Source of the DNA: a virus
Lineage: Duplodnaviria; Caudoviricetes
Virus record (IMG/VR): IMGVR_UViG_3300038345_000144
Direction: 5' to 3' (one strand)
DNA: 64,000 nucleotides
The position numbers were made by a program, and so were the translations under genes. The notes under the pieces are model-generated. The model was given only the letters and a program-made list of their open reading frames with translations. It was not told where the DNA came from and searched no databases. Of this stretch, positions 1 through 23,623 are shown piece after piece (the first letter of the stretch is position 1; each line of letters begins with the position of its first letter).

Positions 1-1103
1 GAAACGCTCTGACCGTCTGCAAGGTCAATCTTGAATGTGAAGGTGTAAGGTGCTCCACCGTTTTCAGTCTTTCTGACTGCGATGATTGTCTGAACACCTC
101 TGGTGTCAATGGACTTTGCTCTAACGAGGATTTCGTTAGGGTCATTGTCATCATCAACTCTAATTCTCCAAGCAGGAGTAGGGTCTTCAGCAATTGCACC
201 CTCACTATCATCAGAAAGGAGAGCCATTCTTGCTTCGGAGAAAGCGGCGATGAAACTCTTTGTAACGGCTCCACCTGTCAACTTTGCATAGAGTTCTGCC
301 TTAAATGCTTCAGGTGTAGAACTTACGAGGTTGCGGGCAAGTACATCAACGAAAGCAAAGAGGTGGTCAGTATTAAGAGCCTTACCCTTAATAGCGTCCT
401 CAACAGTACCCTTACGGCTGAAGGAGATAGTTGTGTATGTTTCCTGCGGGCAAGCATCAGAGTTCTTCCACTCTGTTGTGTCATTTACAGGGATAGCATA
501 CTTCTTATCAAGTTCTGCCTTGATTTTGTTGTGCTTATCCTCAAACTCTTTTCTTGAGAACAACTTAATCATAGGCTTAACAGATGCCTGTGTAGGTGTT
601 CCAACTACAAGTCTTGCGGGGTCTGCCTTACCATACTTCGCACAGCAAGCGTTTGCGGCGAGAAAGTGACCAAAAGCGTCATCAAGGCTTGTAAAGGTGA
701 TTTCAGGACGGCAGTGTGAGAGGTATCTGTTCTGGTCCTCATTACCAGTAGGGAAAGCCTCCTGCGTCTCGAACTCATCAGGGTGGTCTGCCTGATACTG
801 CTTCCACTCAACCCTCTTCTTCTCAAGAGCCTCTGCGTTCTCTGCCTTGTAAGAGAGTTTGTGTTGCTCAACTTCCCACGGGTCAGGTCTTGTCTTTTCC
901 TTTGACTCAACAGTGTACTGTCTCTGTGTGTCAAGTGCGAAGATGGCTTCCTTTGCCTTGTCCCTTACCGACATAGCGACTGTGTAAACGAACAGGTCTG
1001 TCGGAGAGTAAGAACCATCACCGTTCTGCTCAAAGTACCTTGAGTCGATGTTAGCATCGTTCTTGAAATAAAACTTCTCGTTCTTTAATGTTTCGAAATC
1101 CAT
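1..1103 (-). CDS. hypothetical protein (partial, runs off window start; missed by ORF track)
   Basis: ATG at 1103 after a GAGGAGG RBS. Manual translation MDFETLKNEKFYFKNDANIDSRYFEQ... stays open to position 1. Confidence 0.85.
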   Translation of the reverse strand, partial: MDFETLKNEKFYFKNDANIDSRYFEQNGDGSYSPTDLFVYTVAMSVRDKAKEAIFALDTQRQYTVESKEKTRPDPWEVEQHKLSYKAENAEALEKKRVEWKQYQADHPDEFETQEAFPTGNEDQNRYLSHCRPEITFTSLDDAFGHFLAANACCAKYGKADPARLVVGTPTQASVKPMIKLFSRKEFEDKHNKIKAELDKKYAIPVNDTTEWKNSDACPQETYTTISFSRKGTVEDAIKGKALNTDHLFAFVDVLARNLVSSTPEAFKAELYAKLTGGAVTKSFIAAFSEARMALLSDDSEGAIAEDPTPAWRIRVDDDNDPNEILVRAKSIDTRGVQTIIAVRKTENGGAPYTFTFKIDLADGQSV

Positions 1104-1137
1104 TTGATTTCCTCCTCTTAATAGAATTTGTATTGTG

Positions 1138-1166
1138 ATATTAGCACGACATTTTTGAGGTGTCAA
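1138..1166 (-). promoter_or_regulatory. sigma70/sigmaA-type promoter
   Basis: TTGACA-17 nt-TAATAT with TGn extended -10, upstream of the ORF starting at 1103. Confidence 0.7.
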
Positions 1167-1239
1167 GGCTATTTCAAACACTTTTTTAGTTTAGCCCCTA
1201 AACTGTCCGTTTATTGGGACTTTTGTTATTTTTTCGTAA

Positions 1240-1662
1240 TCAAAAACAGGTCTTTTTGTCTCTGGAAACCATTATTGTAATACAGTCGGTCATCTCACCG
1301 CCTATATTATTAGCCAAATCGCCTCCGACAAAATACTCAATAGAGTAGGCTGTTTTAATGTCCCTTTCAGGATAGTCTCTCTGTAATTCTTTAAGGTAAT
1401 CATCGTCTTCCATATATATACCTATATTAAGGGCTTCTTCATTGTCCTTTTCTAAACATATATAATATTCAGACCATTGACCTTTGGGAATATCATCTAA
1501 ATCGGGGAACATCTCCTTGAGCATCTCATACGAAATTGCACTTGTTCTCTTGATAGCGTAATCCGTATCAGGAACACCGTCTTTCATATTGCGGTAAATG
1601 TCATCGAAGTAAGTCTTCAATGCCGTGGTATAATTACCCTCTAATTTTACTATATCGCTCAT
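1240..1662 (-). CDS. hypothetical protein
   Basis: 140-aa ORF, translationally coupled to the upstream ORF. Confidence 0.75.
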   Translation of the reverse strand: MSDIVKLEGNYTTALKTYFDDIYRNMKDGVPDTDYAIKRTSAISYEMLKEMFPDLDDIPKGQWSEYYICLEKDNEEALNIGIYMEDDDYLKELQRDYPERDIKTAYSIEYFVGGDLANNIGGEMTDCITIMVSRDKKTCF

Positions 1663-1847
1663 TAGTCTTCCCCTACATTCTTTGCATTTTCTTTCTTGTA
1701 TCTATGTACCCAATCTTCAGGCATAGCCCCAAGAGAACATAATTTCTCATCACCGTGAGTAAATATACACTCATCACAACCAGTAGCCATACAATACTCG
1801 GCTACTTTACACATAGCCTCAAATGCTTCTTTGTTTGTAACTGCCAT
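1662..1847 (-). CDS. small Cys-rich hypothetical protein
   Basis: AGGAG RBS; YC-x3-GCDEC-x8-C pattern. Confidence 0.7.
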   Translation of the reverse strand: MAVTNKEAFEAMCKVAEYCMATGCDECIFTHGDEKLCSLGAMPEDWVHRYKKENAKNVGED

Positions 1848-1871
1848 AATGTTTCTCCTTAAATATCAATA

Positions 1872-2132
1872 TCAAAGGTGTACTACAATGGTGGTTTCGT
1901 CCTTAATTCCTACACTGATTACTTCCATATCGCCCAATGCCCCATCATCACCACAATGATAAATTGAAAATCCTGCTCCTGATGTTACAGGCTTATAACC
2001 GCCTTCAGTTACAGGGTTATTCTTTGATAGTTCTTTTTGAGCCTCCGATGTTTCGGCTTCTACCAATACAGTCTCAATACGGTGGTCTCCAAAGTTATTA
2101 CGGCAAGCCCTTGTCAATTCTCTGTATTTCAT
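1872..2132 (-). CDS. hypothetical protein
   Basis: AAGGAG RBS, 86 aa. Confidence 0.75.
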   Translation of the reverse strand: MKYRELTRACRNNFGDHRIETVLVEAETSEAQKELSKNNPVTEGGYKPVTSGAGFSIYHCGDDGALGDMEVISVGIKDETTIVVHL

Positions 2133-2151
2133 TTCTGTATCTCCTTTACAT

Positions 2152-2211
2152 AAAAAAGCGAATACGCCGTAGGTAGTGCTTTCTAAAAACTTCCATACAC
2201 GGCATATTCGC
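2152..2211 (-). terminator. intrinsic terminator-like hairpin
   Basis: Stem 2158-2170/2199-2211 followed by T6 on the minus strand. Confidence 0.6.
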
Positions 2212-2223
2212 CTAAATCTTATT

Positions 2224-2240
2224 ATTATATATAAATAGTC
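2224..2240 (-). repeat. oriented 17-bp motif GACTATTTATATATAAT (one of about 10 copies)
   Basis: Identical copies at 10185, 48520 and 58888; variants at 11326, 26533, 35858, 58511, 61453 and 63204. Confidence 0.85.
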
Positions 2241-2242
2241 CT

Positions 2243-2536
2243 TTATTTCGGGGTTCCGAGGTATCTATCCAACAGTTCATCAATGTTCTTGTCGTTAGCG
2301 GGAACCAGTCCATACTTGAACCATTCACCATTTATGATTGTATAAAACAACTCAAATTTATTCTCTGCCAAAGTCTCTTCTGTCAAAAGAACATCATCAC
2401 CAGTGTCAAGAGTTACATAATATTTTTTGCCACCCTTACACTTTGCAAGGAAATAGTCCTTAATATAAGCCTTTGCCTCATCTGTAAACTGTCTGTTGTT
2501 AAAAATAACCATAAAACTGTGTCTCCTTTTATCCAT
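2243..2536 (-). CDS. hypothetical protein
   Basis: 97-aa ORF overlapping the upstream stop. Confidence 0.7.
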   Translation of the reverse strand: MDKRRHSFMVIFNNRQFTDEAKAYIKDYFLAKCKGGKKYYVTLDTGDDVLLTEETLAENKFELFYTIINGEWFKYGLVPANDKNIDELLDRYLGTPK

Positions 2537-3260
2537 TTACCATTTGTAATAGTTGTCTTCTGTACTTACGCAATATTTTGCGGATGCAGTCCATTTGTTT
2601 CTGGGAAAGCGGGTTATTTGGTAGTGAAACACCTCTTTCACCTGCTTTTAGTCTGGTACGGGCTTTTCTAACCTCTGTCAAATAAGTCTTAATGCCCATT
2701 CTTTGTCCCCTATCTGTGACTGTATCTTTCCACCATTTCGTAAGAAAGCCTGCGTCATATCCGTTCAATCCCTTGTTATTACGCTCAATAGCCTGTCCCG
2801 TAGCAATTTCTTCAGCAGTTTGACACTCAAACAATCTTTCGAGGGCTAATAGTGCTTGAAGGTCGTTATTGTCTATCTTCTCGTACAACTCTTCCTCGGA
2901 CCATAAATGCCTTCTGTAAAAAATCGTAGTAAGTATAAACCACTCACGGGTGTCCATATTTACGCAGTAACAAATAGCCCATTGTCTATTATCAGGGGTT
3001 TCAGCGTATTGTTGACAGATTTTTTCGAGCCGTCCTGGTATTTCCTTATCGCCTTTTATGGCTTCCTCATCATACAAGAAGAAGCCAAAGGCATATATAC
3101 CAAACTTATCACGACATAACTCGTAAAATGGGAATATTTTGGTCTGAAATTCGCTCTCATTTTTGCAAATGATGGTGCTTTCACACTCACATTGAGGGTA
3201 TTTCGCTATGAACTGCTCTCGTAATTCTTCATTCATAGACTTATCCTCCTTTTTACCCAT
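2529..3260 (-). CDS. hypothetical protein (phage-type QT..E...N..G.N..DA domain)
   Basis: C-terminal CQTAEE...NNKGLNGYDA...LRKYRRQL motif shared with 8995-9651. Confidence 0.8.
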   Translation of the reverse strand: MGKKEDKSMNEELREQFIAKYPQCECESTIICKNESEFQTKIFPFYELCRDKFGIYAFGFFLYDEEAIKGDKEIPGRLEKICQQYAETPDNRQWAICYCVNMDTREWFILTTIFYRRHLWSEEELYEKIDNNDLQALLALERLFECQTAEEIATGQAIERNNKGLNGYDAGFLTKWWKDTVTDRGQRMGIKTYLTEVRKARTRLKAGERGVSLPNNPLSQKQMDCIRKILRKYRRQLLQMVNG

Positions 3261-3562
3261 TATTCTTCTAACAGTGGCAAGATATTCTCCTTGAGGTTGT
3301 TCAATAACTCCTCTAAATCAATATCCTTGTCGTACTCACACTCGTAGATTTCGATACGGTCAGTGTCGGTATTCCACTCAAATCTAAATGGCTCATTTGT
3401 ACCATTACTGGACTCGTAATCTGCTTGTGTCTTGTAGTACAATACATCACCGTCTCCAGCGACATACTTACCTACTTTTTTAACTGAAGGGACGATTACA
3501 CCAGTCTCGATGTAGTAGAATTTCTCGCCCTTACTTTCATAAGTACCATATTCTCTAAACAT
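3260..3562 (-). CDS. hypothetical protein
   Basis: GGAGG RBS, 100 aa. Confidence 0.75.
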   Translation of the reverse strand: MFREYGTYESKGEKFYYIETGVIVPSVKKVGKYVAGDGDVLYYKTQADYESSNGTNEPFRFEWNTDTDRIEIYECEYDKDIDLEELLNNLKENILPLLEE

Positions 3563-3577
3563 TTTTCACTTCCTCCG

Positions 3578-3937
3578 TTATGAATATGTGTCTGTTTTGA
3601 CAAATATAACTGGTGGGTTCATCTCCATATTTGCTCTTTGCACTATGACATTATCCCACTGGTCAACTATTGTGTATCTTGGGGTAGATATGTACCAAGT
3701 TCCGTTGGAACAAACCATATTGATGTCTTTTTTGCCTGCTCTTTCGAAGGCGGTCTGTAACTTCATTGAGAGTTCAGCCATATCTTCGCAAACATTACCA
3801 ACATCGTCAACTTCCATACTAACCCTATAACGAGATAGCATATCTATCAGCATAGGTCGAGTAACCTCTATAAAGGTTCTGAAATTGACATTACCCATAA
3901 ATATTAAATCTCTGAATTGGTTAAGTGTTAATTCCAT
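3578..3937 (-). CDS. hypothetical protein
   Basis: 119 aa, tightly packed in operon. Confidence 0.75.
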   Translation of the reverse strand: MELTLNQFRDLIFMGNVNFRTFIEVTRPMLIDMLSRYRVSMEVDDVGNVCEDMAELSMKLQTAFERAGKKDINMVCSNGTWYISTPRYTIVDQWDNVIVQRANMEMNPPVIFVKTDTYS

Positions 3938-3942
3938 AGACT

Positions 3943-4350
3943 TTACTCCATTTCATCAAGCATTGTGGCATCAATAACTGCCCACTTGTACCCGCCTTCT
4001 TTCCAGACATAAAGGTACTCAATATCCTCCCTGAAGCACTCTCGGAGGTTCTTATACACCGTAGGCTGTCCTGTACCACACTCAATATAGCAACCGTTAG
4101 ATAGTGGGGTAAGGTCTTCGTCTTTACAGAAATTCTTAATCTTCTTTCTGTGGTCATCAAGATATTCCTGTGTGAAAATTGCCTCACAACTCTCAAATTT
4201 AACCAATTCCTCGGCTAAATCTTCTTCAGCAAATCTGCCGTGGTCATTTAATAAAGGTAACATAAAGGCAGGGTTTCCGTCCCAGTGCTTCCACATACCT
4301 AAAACTGTACCATCTTTTCTCTTGATTGCTACCATTGACCTTGTACTCAT
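3943..4350 (-). CDS. hypothetical protein, MSTR-x-xAI/HWDG family paralog 1
   Basis: MSTRSMVAIK...KHWDGNP...IEYLYVW; paralog of 4885 and 5305. Confidence 0.85.
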   Translation of the reverse strand: MSTRSMVAIKRKDGTVLGMWKHWDGNPAFMLPLLNDHGRFAEEDLAEELVKFESCEAIFTQEYLDDHRKKIKNFCKDEDLTPLSNGCYIECGTGQPTVYKNLRECFREDIEYLYVWKEGGYKWAVIDATMLDEME

Positions 4351-4362
4351 ATGTATTCTCCT

Positions 4363-4548
4363 TTAATCAACATCTGGAGGCATTTGCATAGCATACCACT
4401 CGCTTAATGCCTGCTTTCTTGCACATTCTTTCAAATCTTCTTTTAACTGCTCCTCATCCTCTTCAAAGGCTTGGCTTATACCTTTAGCCTCTTCTGGAGA
4501 TAAAAGGGCTTCAAACTCTGATAAGTCATATCTTTCTACTGTTAACAT
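4363..4548 (-). CDS. hypothetical protein
   Basis: 61 aa with RBS. Confidence 0.6.
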   Translation of the reverse strand: MLTVERYDLSEFEALLSPEEAKGISQAFEEDEEQLKEDLKECARKQALSEWYAMQMPPDVD

Positions 4549-4560
4549 AAATTTCTTCCT

Positions 4561-4875
4561 TTATTCGTATGGTATTGCCTCAAAAACGGTGTCTAAATAC
4601 TTCATTCGAAGTTCATCAAAAACACCCTCATCAATACCGTTTTCCAAACCCCAATCTTTTGCCGTTTGGTCAAAATCTGCGGGGTTAATTTCTCTTACCC
4701 TTTTCCAAAACCACTGGGTAGCAAGTGTTTCTGATACGCCTTGTTCGTCCATTATATCTTGGATAACAATGTCCATACCACACCAATCATAATAGGTTCG
4801 TGTGATAGTCTCACCTTTAAGCGTAGTTCCTGACCAGTCTTTTGTTTCTGGGTCTTGCTGGATAATTCTACTCAT
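4561..4875 (-). CDS. hypothetical protein
   Basis: GAGGT RBS, 104 aa. Confidence 0.75.
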   Translation of the reverse strand: MSRIIQQDPETKDWSGTTLKGETITRTYYDWCGMDIVIQDIMDEQGVSETLATQWFWKRVREINPADFDQTAKDWGLENGIDEGVFDELRMKYLDTVFEAIPYE

Positions 4876-4884
4876 AGTTACCTC

Positions 4885-5289
4885 TTATTTATAAGTTGTC
4901 CACTTACCGTCCTCAAATACATAGACATAGTTAAGGTCTTGTCCCAACATCTCATCTATGGTCTTGAAAAAGCCGTTTGGTTCAGCACCAGCAACAACAT
5001 TTCCGTTGTGGGTCCACATAAGAGCATACCTATTGTTTGATAATTTAACAAACTTGCCTGCTTTTTCACCCTCATACTGTTGTGGGAACTCGGTCATTAG
5101 CTCTTTCTTGAGTTTCTCACCGCAAACAGTAGAAAAACTGTGTAAGTCAAGCAACTCCTGAATAGAAGCCTTGTCCATAAAGTATGTGCGGAGTTCTCTA
5201 CCTAAACTATCAGGCATACCATCATTCCAACACCAAGCCGTTACATAACCACCCTTTTGTGGGATTGCTATAATTGCTCTTGTACTCAT
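4885..5289 (-). CDS. hypothetical protein, MSTR family paralog 2
   Basis: MSTRAIIAI...WNDGMP...LNYVYVF. Confidence 0.85.
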   Translation of the reverse strand: MSTRAIIAIPQKGGYVTAWCWNDGMPDSLGRELRTYFMDKASIQELLDLHSFSTVCGEKLKKELMTEFPQQYEGEKAGKFVKLSNNRYALMWTHNGNVVAGAEPNGFFKTIDEMLGQDLNYVYVFEDGKWTTYK

Positions 5290-5304
5290 AATTCACCTCA
5301 ATCA

Positions 5305-5703
5305 TTAAAAAGCATCAGCGTCAGGGTCAATAACAACCCACTTATATCCATTCCATATATAGACATATTCTATGGCGAAGTTATTAGGGTCACTCCAAAG
5401 TGCCTTCAGGTTTTTATACTCTTTTGGACTATCATATCCGTCAAAGATGTAATTGCCATTAGAACACTTAAAAAACTTTTCTTCTGGGTATTGTTCAGGA
5501 TATTGTGTTTGATATTTTTCTTTATCTTCAGGGGTTTGAAAACAATCACAATATCCAAACCTAACTAACTCATTAGCGAGTTCGTCAGAATTAAAGTTCT
5601 CTAAAAAAGGCATCATATAACTGGGATAACCGTCCCAATGCTTAAACATCGCCTTTAAGGAACCGTCAGCCTGCTTTATTGCCACCATTGACCTTGTGCT
5701 CAT
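5305..5703 (-). CDS. hypothetical protein, MSTR family paralog 3
   Basis: MSTRSMVAIK...KHWDGYP...IEYVYIW. Confidence 0.85.
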   Translation of the reverse strand: MSTRSMVAIKQADGSLKAMFKHWDGYPSYMMPFLENFNSDELANELVRFGYCDCFQTPEDKEKYQTQYPEQYPEEKFFKCSNGNYIFDGYDSPKEYKNLKALWSDPNNFAIEYVYIWNGYKWVVIDPDADAF

Positions 5704-7347: not shown

Positions 7348-8922
7348 TTAAGTATCTTGACCTCTGGACTTGAGATTTAACTTAATCTTATTTTTCTGTT
7401 CCGTAGGGTCAACATTCAACTTGATTTTAGGCTTACCTGTTGGAGCCGTACCGAGTGCAGACTCAACCTTATCCCTTGTAGGAGTAGGGTTAATGCCTGC
7501 TATCATCTCTGCGGTTGCTTCCGTCATCTCGTTAGGTTCTTCAGAGTTTTCGGAGGTCGGCTCTTCGGTTGTTGTACCCCAAATACTATTGAGTTCTTCC
7601 ATACTGATTTTAGGTGCAGTAACGCTTTCAGTTGCTCCTACCTCACCCATATTGAAATCCATATTCAAAGGGTCATTCTCACCCTCATTAGGGTCAAACT
7701 CATCAGGGTCCTTTTCAGGCTTCTTTGCCTCTTCAGGAGCGTTAGGTGTTTCAGGGGGATTGCCACCGTTCTCATCATCGTCTCCGTCATCAGGCTCATC
7801 AAGTCTGTGCTGTTTTACCCAACCAGTATTGAGTTCATCAAACTTAAGTCCACGAACCTTACACTGTTCCTCAAAGACAGGGTTCTGATATGTTAATCTC
7901 TGGTTAGTATCAAATTCCCAGTCCTTTTCAGGCTGTGTGTAATATGTCTGTGTTTCAATGATTTCGTTACCTGAACCAATAAATCCACGACCTTTGATTT
8001 CAGGCTTTGCGAGGTTAGAAATATCCTTCTCAAACATCAACTGTGAAGCACCATCATCGAAGCCACCCAAGAGGACGGACATCTGGATATTGTTCTTCAA
8101 GTCTGTTGAAATGGTGGAACCAGAGGCTCTCTGACAAGCAAGAGCAAGGTGGACACCAGCCGCACGACCAAGACGGGCAATAGAACCTAACGCACCTTTA
8201 ACCGTATCAACGGATTGGTAATCGTCTGAAGTCATCAACTCGTTCAACTCGTCGGCAAGGAATACTAACGCTTTAGGAACATAAATACCTTTAGTCATAC
8301 GGAGACTTTCGGTACTTATATATGAGTTATATCCCTTATATTCAGGCAACTGTGGGTGTTTTCCATCCCATCTACCTTCCTGCATACCGTCATAGATTTC
8401 CTGTGCGGTAAGAATGATAGGCTGTCTGCCTTCGGGATAAATTAACTTCAATTTTGCATATTTTCTGTCATTTTCGTCAAGGTCAACCGTCAACTCGAAC
8501 ATCTCATCAAACTGAACCTTCATACCGAAAATTTCAAAGTAATTAACTTCCTTTTCTTTGATTTTATAGACATTATTGACCTTCATCTGCTCCATAAACT
8601 TGAAGCGGTCCATCATAATCTTCTGGAAGTTGGCGACAGTCGCCGCCGCAGTTGGTACATCAAGAGCAACACCCTTGACACCCTTAACACCTCTCAAGAG
8701 GTTAAATTCAACTCGTTTACAGTCAACGCCGACTAATTGGAACCTGTCTTCGTTTCTGGAAACGTGACCTACGATTGACTGCTCCATAACGGATTTACCT
8801 GAATTATGGAACTCTGTACCATTAGGCATAAGGTGTATTGGATTTTGTTCCAATGTAAACCCGTAATAATTATCCTTTTTGTGTAGAGGAGTAATGGAGA
8901 AGTCTGATTGAGTAATAATCAT
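7348..8922 (-). CDS. split FtsK/TcpA-like ATPase, C-terminal precursor (40-aa IntC fused to C-extein)
   Basis: N-terminal ...FSITPL..DNYYGFTLEQN..HLMPNGTEFHN|SGKS (intein blocks F/G, His-Asn, +1 Ser). Then VDCKRVEF, Walker B LVFLADE and ARLGRAAGVHLALACQR, typical of FtsK/SpoIIIE. Acidic disordered tail. Confidence 0.92.
   Translation of the reverse strand: MIITQSDFSITPLHKKDNYYGFTLEQNPIHLMPNGTEFHNSGKSVMEQSIVGHVSRNEDRFQLVGVDCKRVEFNLLRGVKGVKGVALDVPTAAATVANFQKIMMDRFKFMEQMKVNNVYKIKEKEVNYFEIFGMKVQFDEMFELTVDLDENDRKYAKLKLIYPEGRQPIILTAQEIYDGMQEGRWDGKHPQLPEYKGYNSYISTESLRMTKGIYVPKALVFLADELNELMTSDDYQSVDTVKGALGSIARLGRAAGVHLALACQRASGSTISTDLKNNIQMSVLLGGFDDGASQLMFEKDISNLAKPEIKGRGFIGSGNEIIETQTYYTQPEKDWEFDTNQRLTYQNPVFEEQCKVRGLKFDELNTGWVKQHRLDEPDDGDDDENGGNPPETPNAPEEAKKPEKDPDEFDPNEGENDPLNMDFNMGEVGATESVTAPKISMEELNSIWGTTTEEPTSENSEEPNEMTEATAEMIAGINPTPTRDKVESALGTAPTGKPKIKLNVDPTEQKNKIKLNLKSRGQDT
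8803..8922 (-). other. split intein C-fragment (IntC, 40 aa)
   Basis: YYGFTL block F, terminal HN, followed by Ser codon at 8800-8802. Confidence 0.9.
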
Positions 8923-8994
8923 AATTTCCTCCTAAAAAATTGCTTTCAAATAAGTTGGGGAGTACCCATTAAGATACCCCCCAATCAATAAAAC

Positions 8995-9651
8995 TTAACC
9001 GTTCTGATAGTTAAGATACATTCTCTGAAGTTCCGAAGTTCTGTCGCAGAATGTCATATAGTCTCTGATTGTGCAACAAGTTGTATCAGGAGTCTTTACG
9101 GCAACATCACTCTTGGAAATTCTAATGCCGTGGAGTTCTTCTGCCTCCATAGCGTCTGTATCTTCGACAATCAATCCATTGATAAATGCGTCAAGGTCTC
9201 TGGTGTCGTGTCTACCAACCTCGATAGAACGAATAGAATATCTGGTGAGGTCAGCATAAACAAGGTCACGATACTCCATAGGTGCTGTTCCACCCTCTTC
9301 CCATACCCAAGTAGGACACTGGAAGCCCTTGAACCTTGCCATATTCTTGATGAAGGCAATCTGACGAGGATATTTCTTCAATCTCTTCTGAATGAAGATA
9401 AACAAATCCTCTGGGATATGGTTATCGTTCTTCTTTATCTCACCATAGATTTCAACTACCTTTGCACTGTCAGGAAAGTTAAAACCTTGAGCATTGTTGT
9501 AGAGTGCTACTCTCTCAATCTGCTCCTGATAGGTCTGCTTACCCATAAGGCAGTCGAGATACTCAATCAATGTCTCTTCTGGACAATACTTGTCGTTAAT
9601 GTTGTCCTCGATTGTTTTGATACGGTTAGGAATGTAGTCTCCAATTCTCAT
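8995..9651 (-). CDS. hypothetical protein (paralogous domain to 2529-3260)
   Basis: Likely start ATG 9651 after AAGGAG; KQTYQEQ...NNAQGFNFPDS...RLKKYPRQI. Confidence 0.8.
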   Translation of the reverse strand: MRIGDYIPNRIKTIEDNINDKYCPEETLIEYLDCLMGKQTYQEQIERVALYNNAQGFNFPDSAKVVEIYGEIKKNDNHIPEDLFIFIQKRLKKYPRQIAFIKNMARFKGFQCPTWVWEEGGTAPMEYRDLVYADLTRYSIRSIEVGRHDTRDLDAFINGLIVEDTDAMEAEELHGIRISKSDVAVKTPDTTCCTIRDYMTFCDRTSELQRMYLNYQNG

Positions 9652-9812
9652 AGTGTTTCTCCTTTTTCTTTGCATAATAAAACCTCCCACTTTTCGCAGG
9701 AGGTTCTATTTCTTTCGGAGGACCTGTTCTGGACCTTTGAAAGAGTTATTAAAGTAATATCGTATTAAACCCTATTCCAGAAGGTTTAATCGCATAAGTT
9801 GTGGACAGGTGA

Positions 9813-10016
9813 TTACCAAGTAGCAGGCTCAATGACCTTAAAGTAACCTCTGTCAATGTTCTTCTGAAGAAACTCACGCCAATCGCTGGTATAACGAGGG
9901 GGCTGAATAGATTTGACATACTCTTCAAAAGTACCCTCGAAAGTGATTTCTTCAACTTCCCAATTTTCTGAATTCAAATCATCTCTGGTCGCTGTTACAA
10001 TACGCATAAATAACAA
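9813..10016 (-). CDS. hypothetical protein
   Basis: About 65 aa, downstream of a promoter and RBS. Confidence 0.65.
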   Translation of the reverse strand: MLFMRIVTATRDDLNSENWEVEEITFEGTFEEYVKSIQPPRYTSDWREFLQKNIDRGYFKVIEPATW

Positions 10017-10049
10017 GTTCCTTTCGCTCTCATATCGAGAATTTATACC

Positions 10050-10078
10050 ATAATACTATAAATTTTTGAGGTTGTAAA
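10050..10078 (-). promoter_or_regulatory. sigma70-type promoter related to the one at 1138-1166
   Basis: TTTACA-17 nt-TATTAT; shares spacer CCTCAAAAAT and an upstream box. Confidence 0.6.
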
Positions 10079-10203
10079 GTCCGAACATTCACAACTTTTC
10101 AATTTTGTCAACCCCTAAACTGTACGAATAACGGTACTCTTTCTCACTTTTCGTTACTTTTCTCGATTAACTTATCGAACCTTTATTATATATAAATAGT
10201 CGT

Positions 10204-10488
10204 TCATCGGAGGATTTTCTCAATGGTCATCTCGTCGATTAGACGGCTATCATATACATTTTTCCCCGTGATTTCTTCCAATTTATCACAAAAGTCCTTA
10301 AAATTGACAGGGACAGTGTTGCGATACTTATAAATTCCGTCACTTTCTTTAATCAAGTAAAGAAAATCGCCACCCTTAATCTTCTTGGGGGACTTAATGC
10401 TGAATATACAGCGTGTTCCCTCTGCTATAAAACTGCCAAGAGCGTCGGCATCTTCTCGTCCTAAAACTGTACCAACAGGAAATATCAT
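10204..10488 (-). CDS. hypothetical protein
   Basis: 94 aa, coupled overlap. Confidence 0.7.
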   Translation of the reverse strand: MIFPVGTVLGREDADALGSFIAEGTRCIFSIKSPKKIKGGDFLYLIKESDGIYKYRNTVPVNFKDFCDKLEEITGKNVYDSRLIDEMTIEKILR

Positions 10489-10871
10489 AATTCGCCTCTT
10501 CCTTCCAAATCTGCTAAAATCTGTATCTGACTATCAGGCAAGCCGTCCATAGACGGATGCGGGTTCTTCTCGTAATATCTCTGATAGAGATACTCGCACA
10601 TAGCCACTAAAACCTTACGGTCATATTTTTCTCTCGGTACATAGTTGAAATAATCGCAGAATTTCCACAAAGAACGGGGAATAACTCCGTGTGTATAGTC
10701 GTAGCGTACCGAAATAAAGCAATACTCCGAACCCGTACCTGCGGCTCTGTGGATAGGGATAGTTCCCTTGTAGAGATAGCCCTCAAATCTTGTTCCATCA
10801 TCAGAAAAATCCAATGAAGGCTCTCTTGCGATGTCCGTACCTGTAATTCTGGTGTGCTGTTGCTGTGCCAT
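10485..10871 (-). CDS. hypothetical protein
   Basis: AGGAGGAG RBS, 128 aa. Confidence 0.75.
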   Translation of the reverse strand: MAQQQHTRITGTDIAREPSLDFSDDGTRFEGYLYKGTIPIHRAAGTGSEYCFISVRYDYTHGVIPRSLWKFCDYFNYVPREKYDRKVLVAMCEYLYQRYYEKNPHPSMDGLPDSQIQILADLEGRGEL

Positions 10872-10893
10872 AGGTGTTCTCCTCCTACACTTG

Positions 10894-11253
10894 TTATACA
10901 GTTATAATCTGTTCGTAAACCAACTGTAATACTCTCTCGGCTTCATTCTTGTCAACATCTACTCTCTCCCACTTCTTTGTGTCTGGGTTCTGAACAAATG
11001 TCTTAAAATGAACCTCTCTAATGTTACCCTGTAAGTCCAAATCGAACTGAAGTTCTTGGTCTTTAGCGTCAATCTCGACCTTCGGGTAGATTTCTCCCCT
11101 CTCAAAAGCCTTTATCCATATAATCACGGTATCGTCTTTGATGGGAATGTCGGCATCATCAATCTTTCTGGCTATCTTACGAGCCGTATTGATGAGATTG
11201 CTCATAACTTCAGGGTCAAAATAACTTTCTTTCCTAATTGCTAACTTAATCAT
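10894..11253 (-). CDS. hypothetical protein
   Basis: 119 aa with RBS. Confidence 0.75.
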   Translation of the reverse strand: MIKLAIRKESYFDPEVMSNLINTARKIARKIDDADIPIKDDTVIIWIKAFERGEIYPKVEIDAKDQELQFDLDLQGNIREVHFKTFVQNPDTKKWERVDVDKNEAERVLQLVYEQIITV

Positions 11254-11276
11254 CTAATTTCCCCCTAAAAATTACT

Positions 11277-11321
11277 AAAAAATAGGAGGAAAACACCATT
11301 ATTTAACGATATTTTCCTCTT
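11277..11321 (-). terminator. terminator-like hairpin
   Basis: GAGGAAAA...TTTTCCTC stem then a T-run on the minus strand. Confidence 0.55.
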
Positions 11322-11344
11322 TTCTATTATAATTAAATAGTCTT

Positions 11345-12229
11345 TTATTGTGAAGTGCCTCCGAAATGTTTTAACAAGAACTTCGGTATTTTCTCTGATT
11401 TAGGCGTAGGCGGTACAATCTGTGATTTGTGGGCAACATAGTCCTCACTCCTCTTAATTGTATCAAGAAAGTCCTGTGGCAGTCTGGAAGTACACTCGGT
11501 AATCCAGCCTTTAGGAACGCCTCCCCAGAACGCTTCAGCAATCGCACCTGCAATACAAGCCATTGTATCAGCGTCACCGTTTAAGAATACGGCATTACGA
11601 ATGACATCTTCAAAGTCTTTACCCTCTAAAAAGCAGATAATTGACTCTGGGACCGTCTTTTGACACGACTCGTTAAAGCCATAGCCACTTTGTTTAATCT
11701 GTTTGCAGGTTCTAATTAAATCATAACCATACTTCTTCTCGATGTAGTCCTTGATTTCTTTTTTCGAGTGACCCGTTCTGGCTAAAAAGATAGCGGAAGC
11801 CGTTGCTTGAGCACCCTTAATTCCCTCTGGGTGATTGTGGGTAACTTCAGCCGTCCACTTGGCTCTTTCTTCTGTTTCCTCCAGCGTGTCATAAAACCAG
11901 CCAACTGATGAAACTCTCATAGCGGAGCCATTTCCCCAAGAACCATAAGGCTTTGGGTCTTTTTGATAAATCCAGCCACCAAATCCTGCTCCATATCCCG
12001 CACCAGGATATTTCTTACCGTATTTCTGCATTTGCTCTACAATAACAGGCAAGGCATCTTCTTCAGAATATCCGTGTGTCATTATCATCGCCTCGGCAAT
12101 AGCCATTGTCATTACACTATCGTCTGAATAGCGTGTATAAGGCGTAAATATCGGGAAATTTCGTATCGTACAAGGTAAAAACTCAAAAGGGACACCAATC
12201 ATATCCCCTAAAAATGCTCCATATAACAT
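11345..12229 (-). CDS. ADP-ribosylglycohydrolase (DraG/ARH family)
   Basis: GAFLGD..G.PFEF, YSDDS, GSWGNGSAMR, THNHPEG and GDADT motifs. Confidence 0.95.
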   Translation of the reverse strand: MLYGAFLGDMIGVPFEFLPCTIRNFPIFTPYTRYSDDSVMTMAIAEAMIMTHGYSEEDALPVIVEQMQKYGKKYPGAGYGAGFGGWIYQKDPKPYGSWGNGSAMRVSSVGWFYDTLEETEERAKWTAEVTHNHPEGIKGAQATASAIFLARTGHSKKEIKDYIEKKYGYDLIRTCKQIKQSGYGFNESCQKTVPESIICFLEGKDFEDVIRNAVFLNGDADTMACIAGAIAEAFWGGVPKGWITECTSRLPQDFLDTIKRSEDYVAHKSQIVPPTPKSEKIPKFLLKHFGGTSQ

Positions 12230-12235
12230 ATAAGG

Positions 12236-13018
12236 TCAGTTTCCTTTCTCTAATTCTGCTTTAAGTCTTTCAACTTCTGCTTTTAAGGACGCAATCTCTT
12301 TGTCCTTTCTTGAAACTACACCCTCGTACTTGTTCACAAGAACCTCGGAGTTCTCTGTAAGGCTGATAATCTTTGATTTGATGTCGGTAAAAGCGTTACT
12401 GAACTCTGGGTATGCCTGCTTGCCGTATGAAGCCAAAGGATAAACAAACTGTCTGGTTTCTCTCACATATTTGTGGAGTTTATCGGTTGGCATATTATAC
12501 AGGTCCTCGACATTGTGGCTTCTATCTGCCAGTTTGACAAGGATAGCATACTTGTTCTTTTTTATCTTATTGAAATAATCAAGTAACTGTTCATCGGTAT
12601 ATCCTGCACTCTTTGTAACCAATGAAACCACCGTATAGACTTCCTTTGGGAAACCATAATTAAGGACTAACTCCTGACCGCCCAAAGGGAAGAACTGCTT
12701 GCAATCCTCTAAAGTATCGTGGAGCAAGGCACTGGTTAACAGTATGTCCAATTCCTCATTAGGCATTGTGGTTCCAACAATACTAATAAGAGTGGAACAA
12801 ACCCTCAAAACGTGCAAGATGTAAGGGGTTTTATATTCCACTCCGTCAATGTTAGTATTACCTTTACGGTATTGTCCGTTATGAAATTGTCTTGCTAATG
12901 GCAAGGCTTTAAGGGTGTTGGTTAGTTTCAAACCTGTTGCATAACCTTTTATGAAATTGAAAGGCTTGCTATACAAAAACTCTTCTTCTTTGTTGTAGTT
13001 TTCTAAAATGCCTGACAT
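12236..13018 (-). CDS. HD-domain protein, RelA/SpoT hydrolase-like (small alarmone hydrolase-like)
   Basis: H.GQYRK...PYILH...ALLHDTLED...VKLADRSHN; likely start at ATG 13018. Confidence 0.85.
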   Translation of the reverse strand: MSGILENYNKEEEFLYSKPFNFIKGYATGLKLTNTLKALPLARQFHNGQYRKGNTNIDGVEYKTPYILHVLRVCSTLISIVGTTMPNEELDILLTSALLHDTLEDCKQFFPLGGQELVLNYGFPKEVYTVVSLVTKSAGYTDEQLLDYFNKIKKNKYAILVKLADRSHNVEDLYNMPTDKLHKYVRETRQFVYPLASYGKQAYPEFSNAFTDIKSKIISLTENSEVLVNKYEGVVSRKDKEIASLKAEVERLKAELEKGN

Positions 13019-13097
13019 AACTTTGACCCCCTTATAAGATTTTATAAGGTCATTATATCTCAAATCTGACAGGCAAGTAAATTACAAAAGATGAAAA

Positions 13098-13586
13098 TTA
13101 TTCGTCCTCGTTGACGACTTCCATTGTGAAATGTGACTTAAATTCATCGTCCATCAAGATATAAATATTAACAGGCATATCCAATGGCTCTTTTGTTTCC
13201 TTATCTATGAGGTGTAAAATGTGACCACCGTTTACCGTGTAGGTACTGCCATTTACACTAATCTCATACATATCGTCAACACCCGTATGTAGTTCGGCTA
13301 CTCTTTCAGCACCGTTAACTCCCTTTACTAAATCACCCTCTTGAATGTCTTGCGACATTTTGATACGGGAACCACTGGGTATGTCTGTTTCATAGTTTTT
13401 CTCAATGGAGAAAGTTCGCTTGATTTTCTTTCCGTCAACCAAGTCCAGTAAATAATATTTAGAGTAGTTCATACCCAGAAGTGTCTTAACCGTTACTCTT
13501 CTGGAGAACAACCCATAAAATACTCTTAACACATAGTCCTCGTCAGCGACGATAAAACTATGGTCTGATAGATTTATTTTATACAT
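13098..13586 (-). CDS. free-standing Hint-core protein (putative middle fragment of a three-piece intein)
   Basis: [34 protein letters not shown]...[11 protein letters not shown] (block B NxxH). No N-terminal Cys1 and no terminal HN. Confidence 0.85.
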
Positions 13587-14793
13587 CTGCCAATCCTTCC
13601 AACTTTTTCTTGCTGTAAGGTGTTTTCTTCAACTTACGCAGAGCCTTCTTCTCAATTTGTCTTACACGCTCACGGGTTACACCCAACGCAAGTCCAACAT
13701 CTTCAAGAATATAAGGATGGTCATAAGGCGGTAGGGCAAACCTCATCTTAACGACTTTCTTCTCTCTGTCAGTAAGTACCTTATCCATTGTTTCCATCAA
13801 TGTTTCTTTAAGGAACTGTCTGTTACAAGCCACTTCTGGAGACTCGATAGTATCGGAGGTTACAAAATCACCAAAGTTGCTATCACCATCTTCACCCACA
13901 GGGTCTTCAAGTGATTTATCAACTCTTGTGTAATCTTGAGCCACCTTTATCTTCTCAACAGTAATGTCCCTCATTGTCTTTGGACCGTTTTCTCTAATCC
14001 AGCCACAAAGTTGTTCATCAGTTGGCTCGTAAATGCCCTTGTCCGTTAGGATAGCCTTTGCCTTTGTAATCTGCTGTAATACCTCATTCAAGTGAACAGG
14101 AATACGGATAATCTTACTATCATCGGCAATAGACCTTGTAACTGCCTGTCTAATCCACCAAGTAGCATAAGTTGAGAACTTAAAGCCAAGTGACGGGTCA
14201 AACCTATCAACAGCCTTCATCAAGCCAATGTTACCCTCTTGAATAAGGTCGAGAAGAGGTACACCTCGGTTGACATACTTCTTTGCAATAGAAACGACAA
14301 GACGCAAGTTACTGTTGATGAGCAACTCTTTCGCATCTTCATCGCCATTGACTACTGCCATAGCAACTTCTTTTTCCTGATTTTCCTCAAGTAGAGGTAT
14401 CTTACCAATAGCCTTGAGATAATCTTTAGTAGCGTCATCGGAAATGCTACGCTCATCGAGAACTGAAGCGTCCTTCAAGTCTTTCTCGACTTCCTCTGCC
14501 TCTTCTGCTATCTGCTTAATATCACTGGCAGTAGGCTCTTTTGCTTCTTCTTCAGGGGTTTCATCCCAGAAATCGAAATTAAAGTCCAAATCCAAGTTAA
14601 ATGACGGAGTTATATTGACAATGGTAACTCCTCGATTTTCTAACTCGGTAATAGCCTCTATAAGTTGGAAGTCGGACTGTAAATCTTGGTTTTTCCAAAG
14701 TTCTGTCTTTACATCACCTTTAAGAAGCGTCATATCACACTTCTTGGCAACTTCTTCCAATTTGTCTATCTTACTTTCAAGTTTCTTATTCAT
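13579..14793 (-). CDS. RpoD/SigA-like sigma70 factor
   Basis: [46 protein letters not shown] and [10 protein letters not shown] motifs. Confidence 0.95.
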
Positions 14794-14849
14794 ATTAAAA
14801 CTCTTCCCTTACATTTGTTTATAATTTGCCTACTATACCCTATATATAG

Positions 14850-14878
14850 AGTATATCACCGAAAATATGTTTTGTGAA
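14850..14878 (-). promoter_or_regulatory. promoter upstream of the sigma/IntM gene pair
   Basis: TTCACA-17 nt-TATACT with TGn extended -10. Confidence 0.6.
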
Positions 14879-14881
14879 TGG

Positions 14882-15694
14882 TTAGGCTACTTTCTTGGCT
14901 ACAACCACGAACCTACCGTTTTCTGTATGGTAAGCACAAGTAGAAAGCGTAATGAATACATCGCCGTACTGTAACTGACTATCCGCAGTAAATACTGATT
15001 TACTTGAGATATGGTTCCAAATGGTACTAAACTCGCTTTCGTTGTGTAACCAAACACAATCGTAGATTTGGTCATCAGCAGTTGTGTAGTAAGCACCCAC
15101 TACCTCATACAAGCCGTCACCCCAAATAGTATTAAACTTGATGAACTTATGCTCACTATAAGCGTCATAGTTCTTATAATACTTCTGAAGGCTACCGAAC
15201 ATTGTACCTGCCTGCATATGGTGTCCAAAGATTATGATATTAGTTGTCGGAATTCTTGCATCGGACCCAGCGTTCATAAAGAGCGTTCCCGAATTACTGT
15301 AATCTCCGTAGAAATCTCGGTGAATATAGTATTCTTCGTCCACCCTTGTCTGCATAACAGGGTAATCAATTACCGTATCGTCGATTGTAAGCCAACCAAC
15401 GAAATCTCTGTTCTGGTTATACAAATCCGCAAAACCATTATAGTTGTAGTCCTCTGGAACAGGCTGGTCGGGCGGTATATAAGTCCAATCGTCCTTTCTG
15501 TTTTTAGCGTCATCGTACTGCTGTCGCCAGATTTGGTTCTTCAACTGCTGGTTCTTCATTTCATCTTCCCAGATATTTTTGAAGTACCAACCCATAATGC
15601 CTAACGGAACTATGATAAGCAGTATGAAGAAAATGACTAAAGCAACACTTCCACCTGAACTTCTCAACTGTGCTTTAATTCTGTGCCAACTCAT
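14882..15694 (-). CDS. srtB: class B sortase
   Basis: N-terminal TM; GWL.I..T.IDYPVMQ, IIFGHHM..GTMFGSL, TLSTC and GRFVV motifs. Confidence 0.93.
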   Translation of the reverse strand: MSWHRIKAQLRSSGGSVALVIFFILLIIVPLGIMGWYFKNIWEDEMKNQQLKNQIWRQQYDDAKNRKDDWTYIPPDQPVPEDYNYNGFADLYNQNRDFVGWLTIDDTVIDYPVMQTRVDEEYYIHRDFYGDYSNSGTLFMNAGSDARIPTTNIIIFGHHMQAGTMFGSLQKYYKNYDAYSEHKFIKFNTIWGDGLYEVVGAYYTTADDQIYDCVWLHNESEFSTIWNHISSKSVFTADSQLQYGDVFITLSTCAYHTENGRFVVVAKKVA

Positions 15695-15726
15695 TCACAT
15701 AAACTTCCTTTCATATATAATAACGA

Positions 15727-16524
15727 TTAGTACACTAAAGTATCTTCCATAAGTACGGGCTGGTCTACACCCAAGCAACCTGTACCACCACAAATAAGGA
15801 TAGATGTGGAAGGAACAGTAGGGTACAACTCCTCCGACTTATTCTGGTCGTTTAAGTACCAACCGATAGCAGAAATCTGCTGTGTGTTAGGGTTGATTGT
15901 CAAACCCATAGGAACGATATTCCAATAAGGGTCGTCTTTTGGTGAGAATGAAGCCTTATTAGGAATAGGCTGTCTTTTCTTACACTCGACCATAATTACA
16001 CCCTGGTCGATAAAGGTCTTGATATAGTAGTAAGAGTAGTGGATAGACTTATCAGACATTTCCGTTACAAACTCTTTCTTATCAACTTCTTTACCACCTC
16101 TATCATAGTTAATATAAATATACTTACTATCATAGAAGATGATTGAAGTACCCAAACGCTTTTCAGCAATTTCGAATACCCAGTCATCAAACGGTGCTTT
16201 TCTCAAGAATATCATCTTGTCGAGCAATCCTATGAGCAAGATACCCAAAGAGATTACTCCCAAGCCACCACATACATAGAAACGATAGATGTGGTTAGCC
16301 GTTAATTTGATAAACATAGGGTTGCCTGTTTTTGGGGCTACAATTGCGGCGACAATTACTAATACCGTAAATACAAACCCGAATATAGCCAAAAACTTAC
16401 ATACTTTATAGAACTTATAGCATTTTTGGTGTTTGGGCTGTATGCCCTTCAACACCTGCTCGTCGTCCTTACTGTCGGCAACACTCTTTTCATCAAGGAA
16501 TGATTTGCCTTTGTTTTCCGACAT
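15727..16524 (-). CDS. split FtsK/TcpA-like ATPase, N-terminal precursor (membrane N-extein fused to 16-aa IntN)
   Basis: Two TM segments; VPMGL..W.LN; ends ILICGGTG|CLGVDQPVLMEDTLVY* (half Walker A followed by intein block A). Confidence 0.9.
   Translation of the reverse strand: MSENKGKSFLDEKSVADSKDDEQVLKGIQPKHQKCYKFYKVCKFLAIFGFVFTVLVIVAAIVAPKTGNPMFIKLTANHIYRFYVCGGLGVISLGILLIGLLDKMIFLRKAPFDDWVFEIAEKRLGTSIIFYDSKYIYINYDRGGKEVDKKEFVTEMSDKSIHYSYYYIKTFIDQGVIMVECKKRQPIPNKASFSPKDDPYWNIVPMGLTINPNTQQISAIGWYLNDQNKSEELYPTVPSTSILICGGTGCLGVDQPVLMEDTLVY
15730..15777 (-). other. split intein N-fragment (IntN, 16 aa)
   Basis: Cys1 codon at 15775-15777; C-h-x-x-D-x-P-V-L-M-x-D block A pattern. Confidence 0.85.
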
Positions 16525-22465: not shown

Positions 22466-23623
22466 TTAAGAAGCCCCATAAAGATACTCATAAATTTCAA
22501 GGGCGGTCATTTCTTGTTCCTGACCGTCTTTAGTTCTTACCTTAATCTTGTCGTCCTTATCAAACTCTCTACCTGTAATCCAGATTTTACCTGTCCAGTC
22601 GGTAGGTTTATAATCTGCCACATCGTTAAGTCCAATCTTCTGCATCTTCTTGTTTCGAGAATACATAACGACACGGGCAATTCTTAACAATTCCGCACCT
22701 TCCTGAACCGAGTTAGCAACAGCAACGACACCGTTCATACCCTTAAAAGGATAGAATTCAGTTTGCTTAATATCAATCAAACCTACGGAAATCTTATTGT
22801 TATGCTCGATACAATGGAAGATAACATTTCTTAAAGTAACGGACTTACCACCACCAGTAGAACCTACGCACAATGCCTGTGGAGCCGATGGTGTCTCAAC
22901 TGTTTGAGCAATCTTACCGTCTTCATAGAAGTAGAGGGAACGACCCTCATTTTTGATAGAGTTAAGGTTCCAAGAAACCTCTCCAAGTCCTGAAAGACCA
23001 ATAGGTACAAATTCAGCAGGTCTCAACCACGAACCAGGATATTTTGCAATATGTGGTGGAAGTGGAGCACCTACGAATGAACATTTACGAGCAGGAAGGT
23101 CAGGTTCAGGCAACCACTCATAGTTAGGCAAATACAAATTAAGTGTCATACAGAGAGTTGCCGCTTGCTCTAACTTGAACCTATCAGGGTTAACCTTAAT
23201 GGTAATTCTGTTAACCTGATTTTTTTCGTAACCAAGTTCAATGTTATATTCTTCCCACTTATTAGGGTCGAACTCATCTTCACCTTTCTTGAGACCAAGA
23301 GTAGGCTTAATAACCTCAAATATCTTTTCTCTTTCTTCATTTTGCTTCTCTACGATAACCTTTTTAATGGTAGCAAGGATAATCATTGTGAGTATCAAAG
23401 CACCACCGTAAGAAGCCAGCAATATCAATAGGGTTGGTGTCTTCAGCGTAAAGAAGTGCTGGATAAGTTGAAGGATAATTCCCACACCCAAGAAGCCTAT
23501 AAGTATTAAACTGTCTCTTTTTGTGTAGGAGTAACCTACTTTATTTTCCATACTGATATGCAGTATCTTGTTAGTAGCAAACTGTCCGAGTGCCACTAAT
23601 AGTACAAATACGAAAATAAACAT
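22466..23623 (-). CDS. FtsK/TcpA-like membrane ATPase, intact Walker A, truncated before Walker B
   Basis: N-terminal TMs; QALCVGSTGGGKS; LIDIKQTEF; ends at TALEIYEYLYGAS with no hhhhDE or LAR.GR. Confidence 0.85.
   Translation of the reverse strand: MFIFVFVLLVALGQFATNKILHISMENKVGYSYTKRDSLILIGFLGVGIILQLIQHFFTLKTPTLLILLASYGGALILTMIILATIKKVIVEKQNEEREKIFEVIKPTLGLKKGEDEFDPNKWEEYNIELGYEKNQVNRITIKVNPDRFKLEQAATLCMTLNLYLPNYEWLPEPDLPARKCSFVGAPLPPHIAKYPGSWLRPAEFVPIGLSGLGEVSWNLNSIKNEGRSLYFYEDGKIAQTVETPSAPQALCVGSTGGGKSVTLRNVIFHCIEHNNKISVGLIDIKQTEFYPFKGMNGVVAVANSVQEGAELLRIARVVMYSRNKKMQKIGLNDVADYKPTDWTGKIWITGREFDKDDKIKVRTKDGQEQEMTALEIYEYLYGAS

Follow-up and report, generated by a model that had tools for sequence, protein, structure and literature searches.

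By the account of a 2023 preprint, the inteins described from nature come from either one gene or two (bioRxiv 10.1101/2023.01.30.526203). According to PMC13014065, canonical splits at the endonuclease site are known, and a natural but atypical split intein, VidaL, is divided at the S1 site to give an N-terminal intein piece (IntN) of 16 amino acids (aa). In the 'fractured genes' reported in 2009, two intein pieces are separated by a gap that holds an endonuclease gene (PMC2677866). Inteins in three pieces have been engineered from Ssp DnaB and Rma DnaB (Sun, Yang and Liu 2004, cited by PMC11923092 and PMC13014065) and from Npu DnaE and gp41-1 (Weis et al., bioRxiv 10.1101/2023.01.30.526203). 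Full-text literature searches turned up no natural three-piece case, three-piece inteins being reported as engineered, just as the initial annotation of the DNA described here had stated. Here, we analyze a stretch of 64,000 nucleotides from a tailed-phage-type virus (IMG/VR record IMGVR_UViG_3300038345_000144; the whole stretch is called the window below), in which three dispersed genes, designated N, M and C, encode the pieces of a single intein that interrupts the Walker A loop of an FtsK/SpoIIIE-family ATPase. Judged from sequence and modelling, this is probably a natural three-piece split intein that still splices, with the M protein as its obligatory third partner.

Three genes that carry one intein

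The N gene (15727-16524, minus strand) encodes 265 aa and reads through half a Walker A motif, GGTG, into a 16-aa tail that begins with Cys and is closed by a TAA stop codon. The C gene (7348-8922, minus strand) encodes 524 aa, of which residues 1-40 close with His-Asn and are followed directly by SGKS. The free-standing M gene (13098-13586, minus strand; 162 aa) carries the intein middle that is absent from the N and C genes. All three are separate open reading frames (ORFs), each with its own ribosome-binding site and TAA stop, and the site that precedes the C-gene head is a strong one. The gap from N to C measures 6.8 kb and holds nine ORFs, M included; those between N and C comprise a sortase, a sigma-70-family factor, an HD-domain protein, an ADP-ribosylglycohydrolase and five without a Pfam family. 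Pfam recognized a homing endonuclease in none of the intervening ORFs, and no Hint core other than M was found within the 64-kb window. Joining the two exteins would give a product of 249 + 484 = 733 aa with GGTGSGKS restored, and the intein pieces add up to 16 + 91 + 40 = 147 aa, the size of one mini-intein. In these respects the initial annotation was borne out: its ORF structure and its lack of a recognizable endonuclease both hold, its arithmetic for the joined protein is right, and the length fits contiguous homologues of 654-725 aa. The features of a class-1 intein are present as well, namely a Cys directly after the N-extein, a block B His, and a His-Asn end followed by Ser at position +1.

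How similar are the pieces to inteins that are encoded in one piece? A scan of viral contigs with the M family turned up one-piece LAGLIDADG inteins in the P-loop of phage SF2 helicases, which pass the Pfam thresholds for Hom_end_hint, ResIII and Helicase_C. A profile of 340 positions was built from seven of these inteins. M residues 75-150 align to its nodes 15-99 (E 1e-15), C residues 16-40 align to its last 25 nodes (316-340), and the 16-aa tail aligns to the first 16 columns of the one-piece inteins. The end of M is the point where the endonuclease domain starts in the one-piece forms. Moreover, tail, M(72-162) and head joined in this order, as had been proposed as a check, score 51.4 bits (E 1e-17) against the profile, versus 7.6 bits for tail plus head without M.

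The similarity of M to the Hint fold, on which the original proposal depended, is thus clear in the comparison with one-piece inteins, and it recurs in wider searches. Against 1.84 billion representatives, an M-family profile gave 3,695 matches; those outside the M family are mostly long proteins that align solely over M 72-160, the pattern expected of inteins. The M family itself has at least 17 free-standing representatives of 158-220 aa (50% clustering). In Pfam, M matches Hom_end_hint below the cut-off (residues 74-126 on model positions 14-77; E 0.004; 17.5 versus 32.1 bits), a sub-threshold score such as a fragment would be expected to give; since the match begins at model position 14, M starts about where the 16-residue tail stops. 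That the three pieces descend from one intein is close to certain.

The protein that is interrupted can be recognized from the C gene, whose product matches Pfam PF01580 (FtsK_SpoIIIE) with 55 bits against a cut-off of 24 (E 8.7e-15) and also, weakly, TraB, EccC and FtsK. Neither M nor N has a match in NCBIfam. At least 25 contiguous homologues (about 600-725 aa; for example P0029, P0036, which scores 71 bits for PF01580, and P0040) represent intein-free alleles and read GGTGSGKSV over the break. This equals the predicted junction of N residue 249 with C residue 41. The insertion lies in the Walker A loop; the end of the N-extein is identical in 5 relatives. The host protein is predicted to be a membrane-anchored, DNA-pump-like ATPase of the FtsK/SpoIIIE family, encoded in two half-genes. 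The initial annotation had called it FtsK/TcpA-like, and the family assignment stands; the implied TcpA-type conjugative element does not, since the element is a huge phage of the ruminant gut. This assignment is based on its near relatives, IMG/VR viral contigs that span 250-467 kb; three of these have direct terminal repeats and are rated complete. More than 10 studies of the bovine and sheep gut yielded metagenomes with near-identical DNA. All genes of the window lie on one strand, and they include those for NrdD and for a protein of 3,203 aa. A known plasmid or integrative and conjugative element (ICE) was considered and rejected: tblastn of the C protein against a plasmid collection gave only distant Clostridium FtsK/SpoIIIE (TcpA-like) matches at about 28-36% identity. 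The same search against a phage collection gave no match.

Features of the intein locus, with positions in the 64,000-nucleotide window
Feature	Position	Strand	Description
N-extein	15778..16524	-	N residues 1-249; two predicted membrane helices and ATPase domain up to GGTG
IntN	15730..15777	-	16-residue tail; Cys1 (Cys250 of N) codon TGC at 15775-15777; TAA at 15727-15729
IntM	13101..13373	-	M residues 72-162; block B Asn119 at 13230-13232, His122 at 13221-13223
M N-terminal domain	13374..13586	-	M residues 1-71; decayed duplicate of Hint block-B segment
IntC	8803..8922	-	40-residue head, blocks F and G; His39 at 8806-8808, Asn40 at 8803-8805
C-extein	7351..8802	-	C residues 41-524; Ser41 (+1 nucleophile) at 8800-8802; SGKS; FtsK/SpoIIIE ATPase core
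Sigma-70-family gene	13579..14793	-	Directly upstream of M and overlapping it; outside the intein

Two further features of the window deserve mention. A GC-rich hairpin with a T-rich run lies at 8945-8990 (minus strand), just upstream of the C-gene ribosome-binding site, and may act as a terminator between C and the genes ahead of it. At 22466-23623 (minus strand) there is a second FtsK-like gene, which covers only positions 35-135 of Pfam FtsK_SpoIIIE and stops mid-domain; it is probably another split gene, with its partner elsewhere.

Conservation and alternative states of the intein

The short N tail is a recurrent feature of its family. Among the 120 N-family clusters listed, 81 end, by a strict pattern, in a Cys-first stretch of 15-17 residues after a GGTG-type half loop; the tail is exactly 16 aa long in 62 clusters, and about nine further clusters show a short Cys tail by eye. 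In all of these roughly 90 short-tailed clusters Cys1 is kept. Recoding of a stop codon was rejected as the cause of the short tail, considering that ORFs of up to 3,203 aa are open in table 11, that the stop is TAA, and that tails of 15-17 aa recur in so many clusters. Other N-family proteins (P0331, P0334, P0344, P0364, P0367 and others; 236-240 aa) stop a few residues before GGTG and have no Cys tail, which reflects a different break point in the same gene family.

The catalytic residues of the other two pieces are equally well kept. The Asn119-x-x-His122 motif of M, which aligns with the same motif of one-piece inteins, is invariant in 12 sequences, as is G121, and His122 is invariant in 32 sequences. 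In 13 homologues of C, residues H39, N40, S41, G42, K43 and S44 are invariant. The homologues with invariant catalytic residues are only 43-78% identical overall. A comparison of two related phages gave ratios of nonsynonymous to synonymous substitution (dN/dS) of 0.09 for M and 0.085 for N, and the Hint part of M gave pN 0.019 versus pS 0.362, a dN/dS of about 0.05. These are working genes and not debris.

Relatives of this locus carry the same intein in other forms. In the IMG/VR records G001 and G002, the N gene (a 342-aa frame) runs via GGTG into a single IntN of about 98 aa, which unites tail and middle, and the C genes start with a 40-aa head of the P0064/P0065 type. Free M was not found in a search of either whole record, that is, in 2 of 2 records with a long IntN. 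This fused IntN passes the Pfam cut-off (36.1 versus 32.1 bits, as scored for the fused form L057). G001 and G002 represent the canonical two-piece state. A different fusion is found in P0079-P0091, P0096 and P0153 (about 550-600 aa), which begin like M, including its N-terminal domain, and continue into the head and C-extein. Four states of this one site are thus represented: no intein, the canonical two-piece form, the M-C fusion and the three-piece form. Upstream of one fused M-C gene, by about 5.7 kb, lies a weak N homologue of 269 aa (L005 3514-4323) that ends shortly after a complete GKTGSGKA loop and has no obvious intein tail.

Do short-tailed N genes ever lack M, as they should not if M is required? 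All five IMG/VR records with a short-tailed N also have free M and the C head, and in the 180-kb metagenome contig L063 the genes N, sigma, M and C are ordered as in the window. Two of the three genes are present in L001, L003 and L004 (N and M) and in L006 (M and C), with the third beyond the flanks covered. The co-occurrence check suggested in the initial annotation therefore came out in favor of its proposal, as did its other computational checks and those of its refuting conditions that can be examined in silico.

Some related phages carry the C gene in several more pieces (L008 15705-19392; L030 13817-19366; G005 268066-268595). In G005 the 40-aa head and a few extein residues make up the entire head ORF of 72 aa, such that some exteins are tiny. 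In the 177-kb related contig L006 (positions 1-5512), cas genes of the Cas3, Cas1, Cas5 and Cas6 types lie about 1 kb upstream of M. Finally, distant huge-phage FtsK-like genes (L044-L048, around locus position 10001) begin with intein-C-like heads, in which SV.QRN comes after HN, a pattern suggestive of split inteins at another site directly behind Walker A.

The layout itself was recovered from other studies, in contigs of 40.9 kb (run X2) and 6.3 kb (run X3). Because these independent contigs reproduce it, the arrangement is not an assembly artefact. At window positions 8603-8608, around codon 106 of the C gene, the X2 strain has 1473 extra bases, and the X3 contigs break there. This polymorphic 1473-bp insertion is possibly a further intein, an intron or an endonuclease gene.

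A splicing model and its alternatives

The proposed mechanism invokes one class-1 intein in the Walker A loop, encoded as a 16-residue tail, M and a 40-residue head. The tail, with Cys1 and the first strands, and the head, with blocks F and G, would dock on M and so complete one Hint horseshoe. Cys1, aided by the block-B His of M, would form a thioester that is attacked by Ser41 of the C protein. Asn40 would then cyclize to free the head, and an acyl shift would leave a normal peptide bond and thereby a 733-residue ATPase with an intact GGTGSGKS loop. The two cuts fall at S1, behind the first two strands, and at the position of endonuclease insertion, which is the canonical split site.

Assembly of the three pieces was modelled with N 221-265, C 1-90 and whole M, each with its own alignment, along the lines laid out in the initial annotation. 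The three-chain model passed its controls with a score of 0.90, against 0.70 for the best control, a mark that was attained by 58 of 80 solved complexes and by 2 of 110 mismatched pairs. At least 80% of contacts agree between runs, and the partners have pLDDT values of at least 86. The modelled interface involves N 246-265, C 1-42 and mostly M 68-161, a combination that a rebuilt Hint fold would need. Inteins being well represented among solved structures, part of this pass may stem from resemblance to them, and the model speaks to assembly, not to chemistry. A single-sequence AlphaFold prediction of a fused protein (P0080:1-240) was uninformative, with a pLDDT of 41.

Residues 1-71 of M were also modelled and compared with known structures. 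The AlphaFold model of M has a pLDDT of 87.6, and its residues 1-70 match the Prp8 intein with Z 8.6 (rmsd 2.2 over 68 aligned residues), the PolII mini-intein with Z 7.5 and NrdJ-1 with Z 7.0; in an exhaustive structural alignment, the top 26 rows are all inteins or Hint modules. Foldseek of the M model against the PDB gave nothing at E <= 0.001, with the Prp8 intein as best match at E 0.14. Profile-profile alignment with hhalign pairs M 1-54 with M 106-162 (probability 80%, E 1.3e-5), and BLASTP of the N-terminal domain against the C-terminal half found nothing significant (E 0.49). The position of the catalytic His is not kept in residues 1-71. On the strength of the structural matches and the profile-profile alignment, this domain is a decayed tandem duplicate of the block-B segment. 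The earlier proposal, which took M(72-162) as the intein middle, has to be amended in this respect. The domain occurs both in free M and in the M-C fusions but not in the canonical two-piece N gene, and so accompanies the short-tail split; it may shield the incomplete fold while its partners are still missing.

The position of M in the genome offers a further hint as to its role. The sigma-70-family gene directly before it has Pfam regions r1.2, r2, r3 and r4, and the M start codon overlaps the sigma-gene stop (13579-13586). The same adjacency is found in the distant relatives L001 (8844-10507), L004 (8556-10504) and L063 (13196-15100), the stop and start codons often overlapping; in L004, M follows an unannotated 482-aa ORF beside the sigma-70-family gene. 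This adjacency suggests co-expression, and the sigma factor may time the expression of M. Perhaps, then, M is a regulated trans-acting cofactor that is translationally coupled to the sigma gene and makes splicing a three-input AND gate, such that the ATPase would be completed only under a particular transcription programme, with the N-terminal domain as a built-in chaperone that would hold the incomplete fold in solution ahead of the two tags. This elaboration is speculative and we hold it rather doubtful; if true, the chaperone domain could explain how tags of 16 and 40 residues are tolerated.

Several points weigh against a splicing three-piece intein. Splicing itself is a prediction from sequences and models, and the shielding role of M residues 1-71 is conjectural. 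The tail is too short for a significant profile match by itself, and its match is modest, in that 11 of 25,150 16-mers of the window reach its score; it is made convincing by its placement at the exact P-loop break. In the complex model, the control that scored 0.70 swapped only the C chain, and the margin lies exactly at the threshold; a residual score is to be expected from this control, given that M and the N tail were kept. Nearly all of M and parts of C are covered by metatranscriptome contigs, with carry-over of DNA possible, and the N gene is not covered by these RNA contigs, which is not evidence of its silence. Lastly, the N partner of the M-C fused form was sought in L005 and L065 with the N-family profile; the search covered about 18 kb upstream and 10 kb downstream and yielded none.

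Could the pieces do their work without splicing? They might dock the N and C halves non-covalently as a heterotrimeric module, such that the ATPase works as a complex with no peptide bond between its halves. Split intein fragments do bind tightly prior to reacting, and the complex model bears on assembly, not on chemistry. However, docking would not require Cys1, the block-B Asn and His, the terminal His-Asn and the Ser at +1, all of which are invariant, and an unspliced Walker A loop would hold 16 + 40 foreign residues in the nucleotide-binding site. We regard this explanation as unlikely.

A second explanation is decay: an intein-bearing gene would have been split by insertions into fragments that are inactive together, with the ATPase dead or its halves repurposed. 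The nine ORFs that lie between N and C, the relatives in which the C gene is in even more pieces, and the 1473-bp insertion inside the C gene of some strains would all fit a relic. It is harder to see why a relic would keep all three ORFs intact in many lineages, hold dN/dS near 0.09 for M and N and near 0.05 for the Hint part of M, maintain a tail of 15-17 aa in 81 clusters with invariant catalytic residues, and leave the M family widespread as a free gene; we therefore consider decay very unlikely. The least probable explanation, with hardly any weight in our judgment, is that M is an independent Hint-domain protein (a sigma-linked regulator or self-processing module) and that the tags use some other factor: M does always adjoin the sigma-factor gene rather than N or C and has an N-terminal domain without counterpart in the canonical two-piece N form, yet it lacks both splice-junction blocks, begins exactly where the tail ends, occurs joined to the tail or to the head, depending on the relative, is missing as a free gene from long-IntN records, and is the only Hint core in the window.

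Comparison with known inteins

If the three-piece intein splices as proposed, it would show that splicing may rely on a free protein as catalytic cofactor, and it would provide a series of evolutionary states at one insertion site. It would also supply ligation parts refined by selection, consisting of tags of 16 and 40 residues and a soluble helper. The duplicated half-Hint domain provides a testable idea for the problem of split-intein aggregation discussed in PMC11923092.

The closest sequence relatives of all three pieces are the one-piece inteins of phage SF2 helicases (L011, L012, L016, L018, L019, L021, L024). They share the insertion context, ...TG before the intein and SGK[ST] after it, as well as the block sequences; they differ in being contiguous, in having an endonuclease domain, and in residing in another family of host protein.

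The fractured genes resemble the present locus in that a phage gene is interrupted at an intein, its halves share a strand and keep their original order, other genes lie between them, and the halves are under purifying selection. However, the fractured genes are in two pieces with an endonuclease gene, whereas here there are three pieces, a gap of 6.8 kb and, by Pfam, no recognized endonuclease.

VidaL shares the natural split after the first two strands, the N-terminal tag of 16 residues, the dependence on Cys and the origin from viral metagenomes. It is a two-piece intein in which a large C-terminal fragment holds all the rest, whereas here a second cut, at the canonical site, divides that fragment. 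The M-C fused relatives (P0079-P0096) resemble a VidaL-type state of this intein.

The engineered three-piece inteins are the most similar in design. Like the present system, they have a short N-terminal piece, a middle without extein and a short C-terminal piece, and the engineered forms need, as the natural one is predicted to, all three pieces for one Hint fold; the cuts here lie near S1 and the endonuclease-insertion position. Those inteins were made in the laboratory, whereas the pieces described here are natural, lie kilobases and other genes apart, and are conserved in many phage lineages. Unlike its engineered counterparts, moreover, the middle piece carries an extra, duplicated half-Hint domain.

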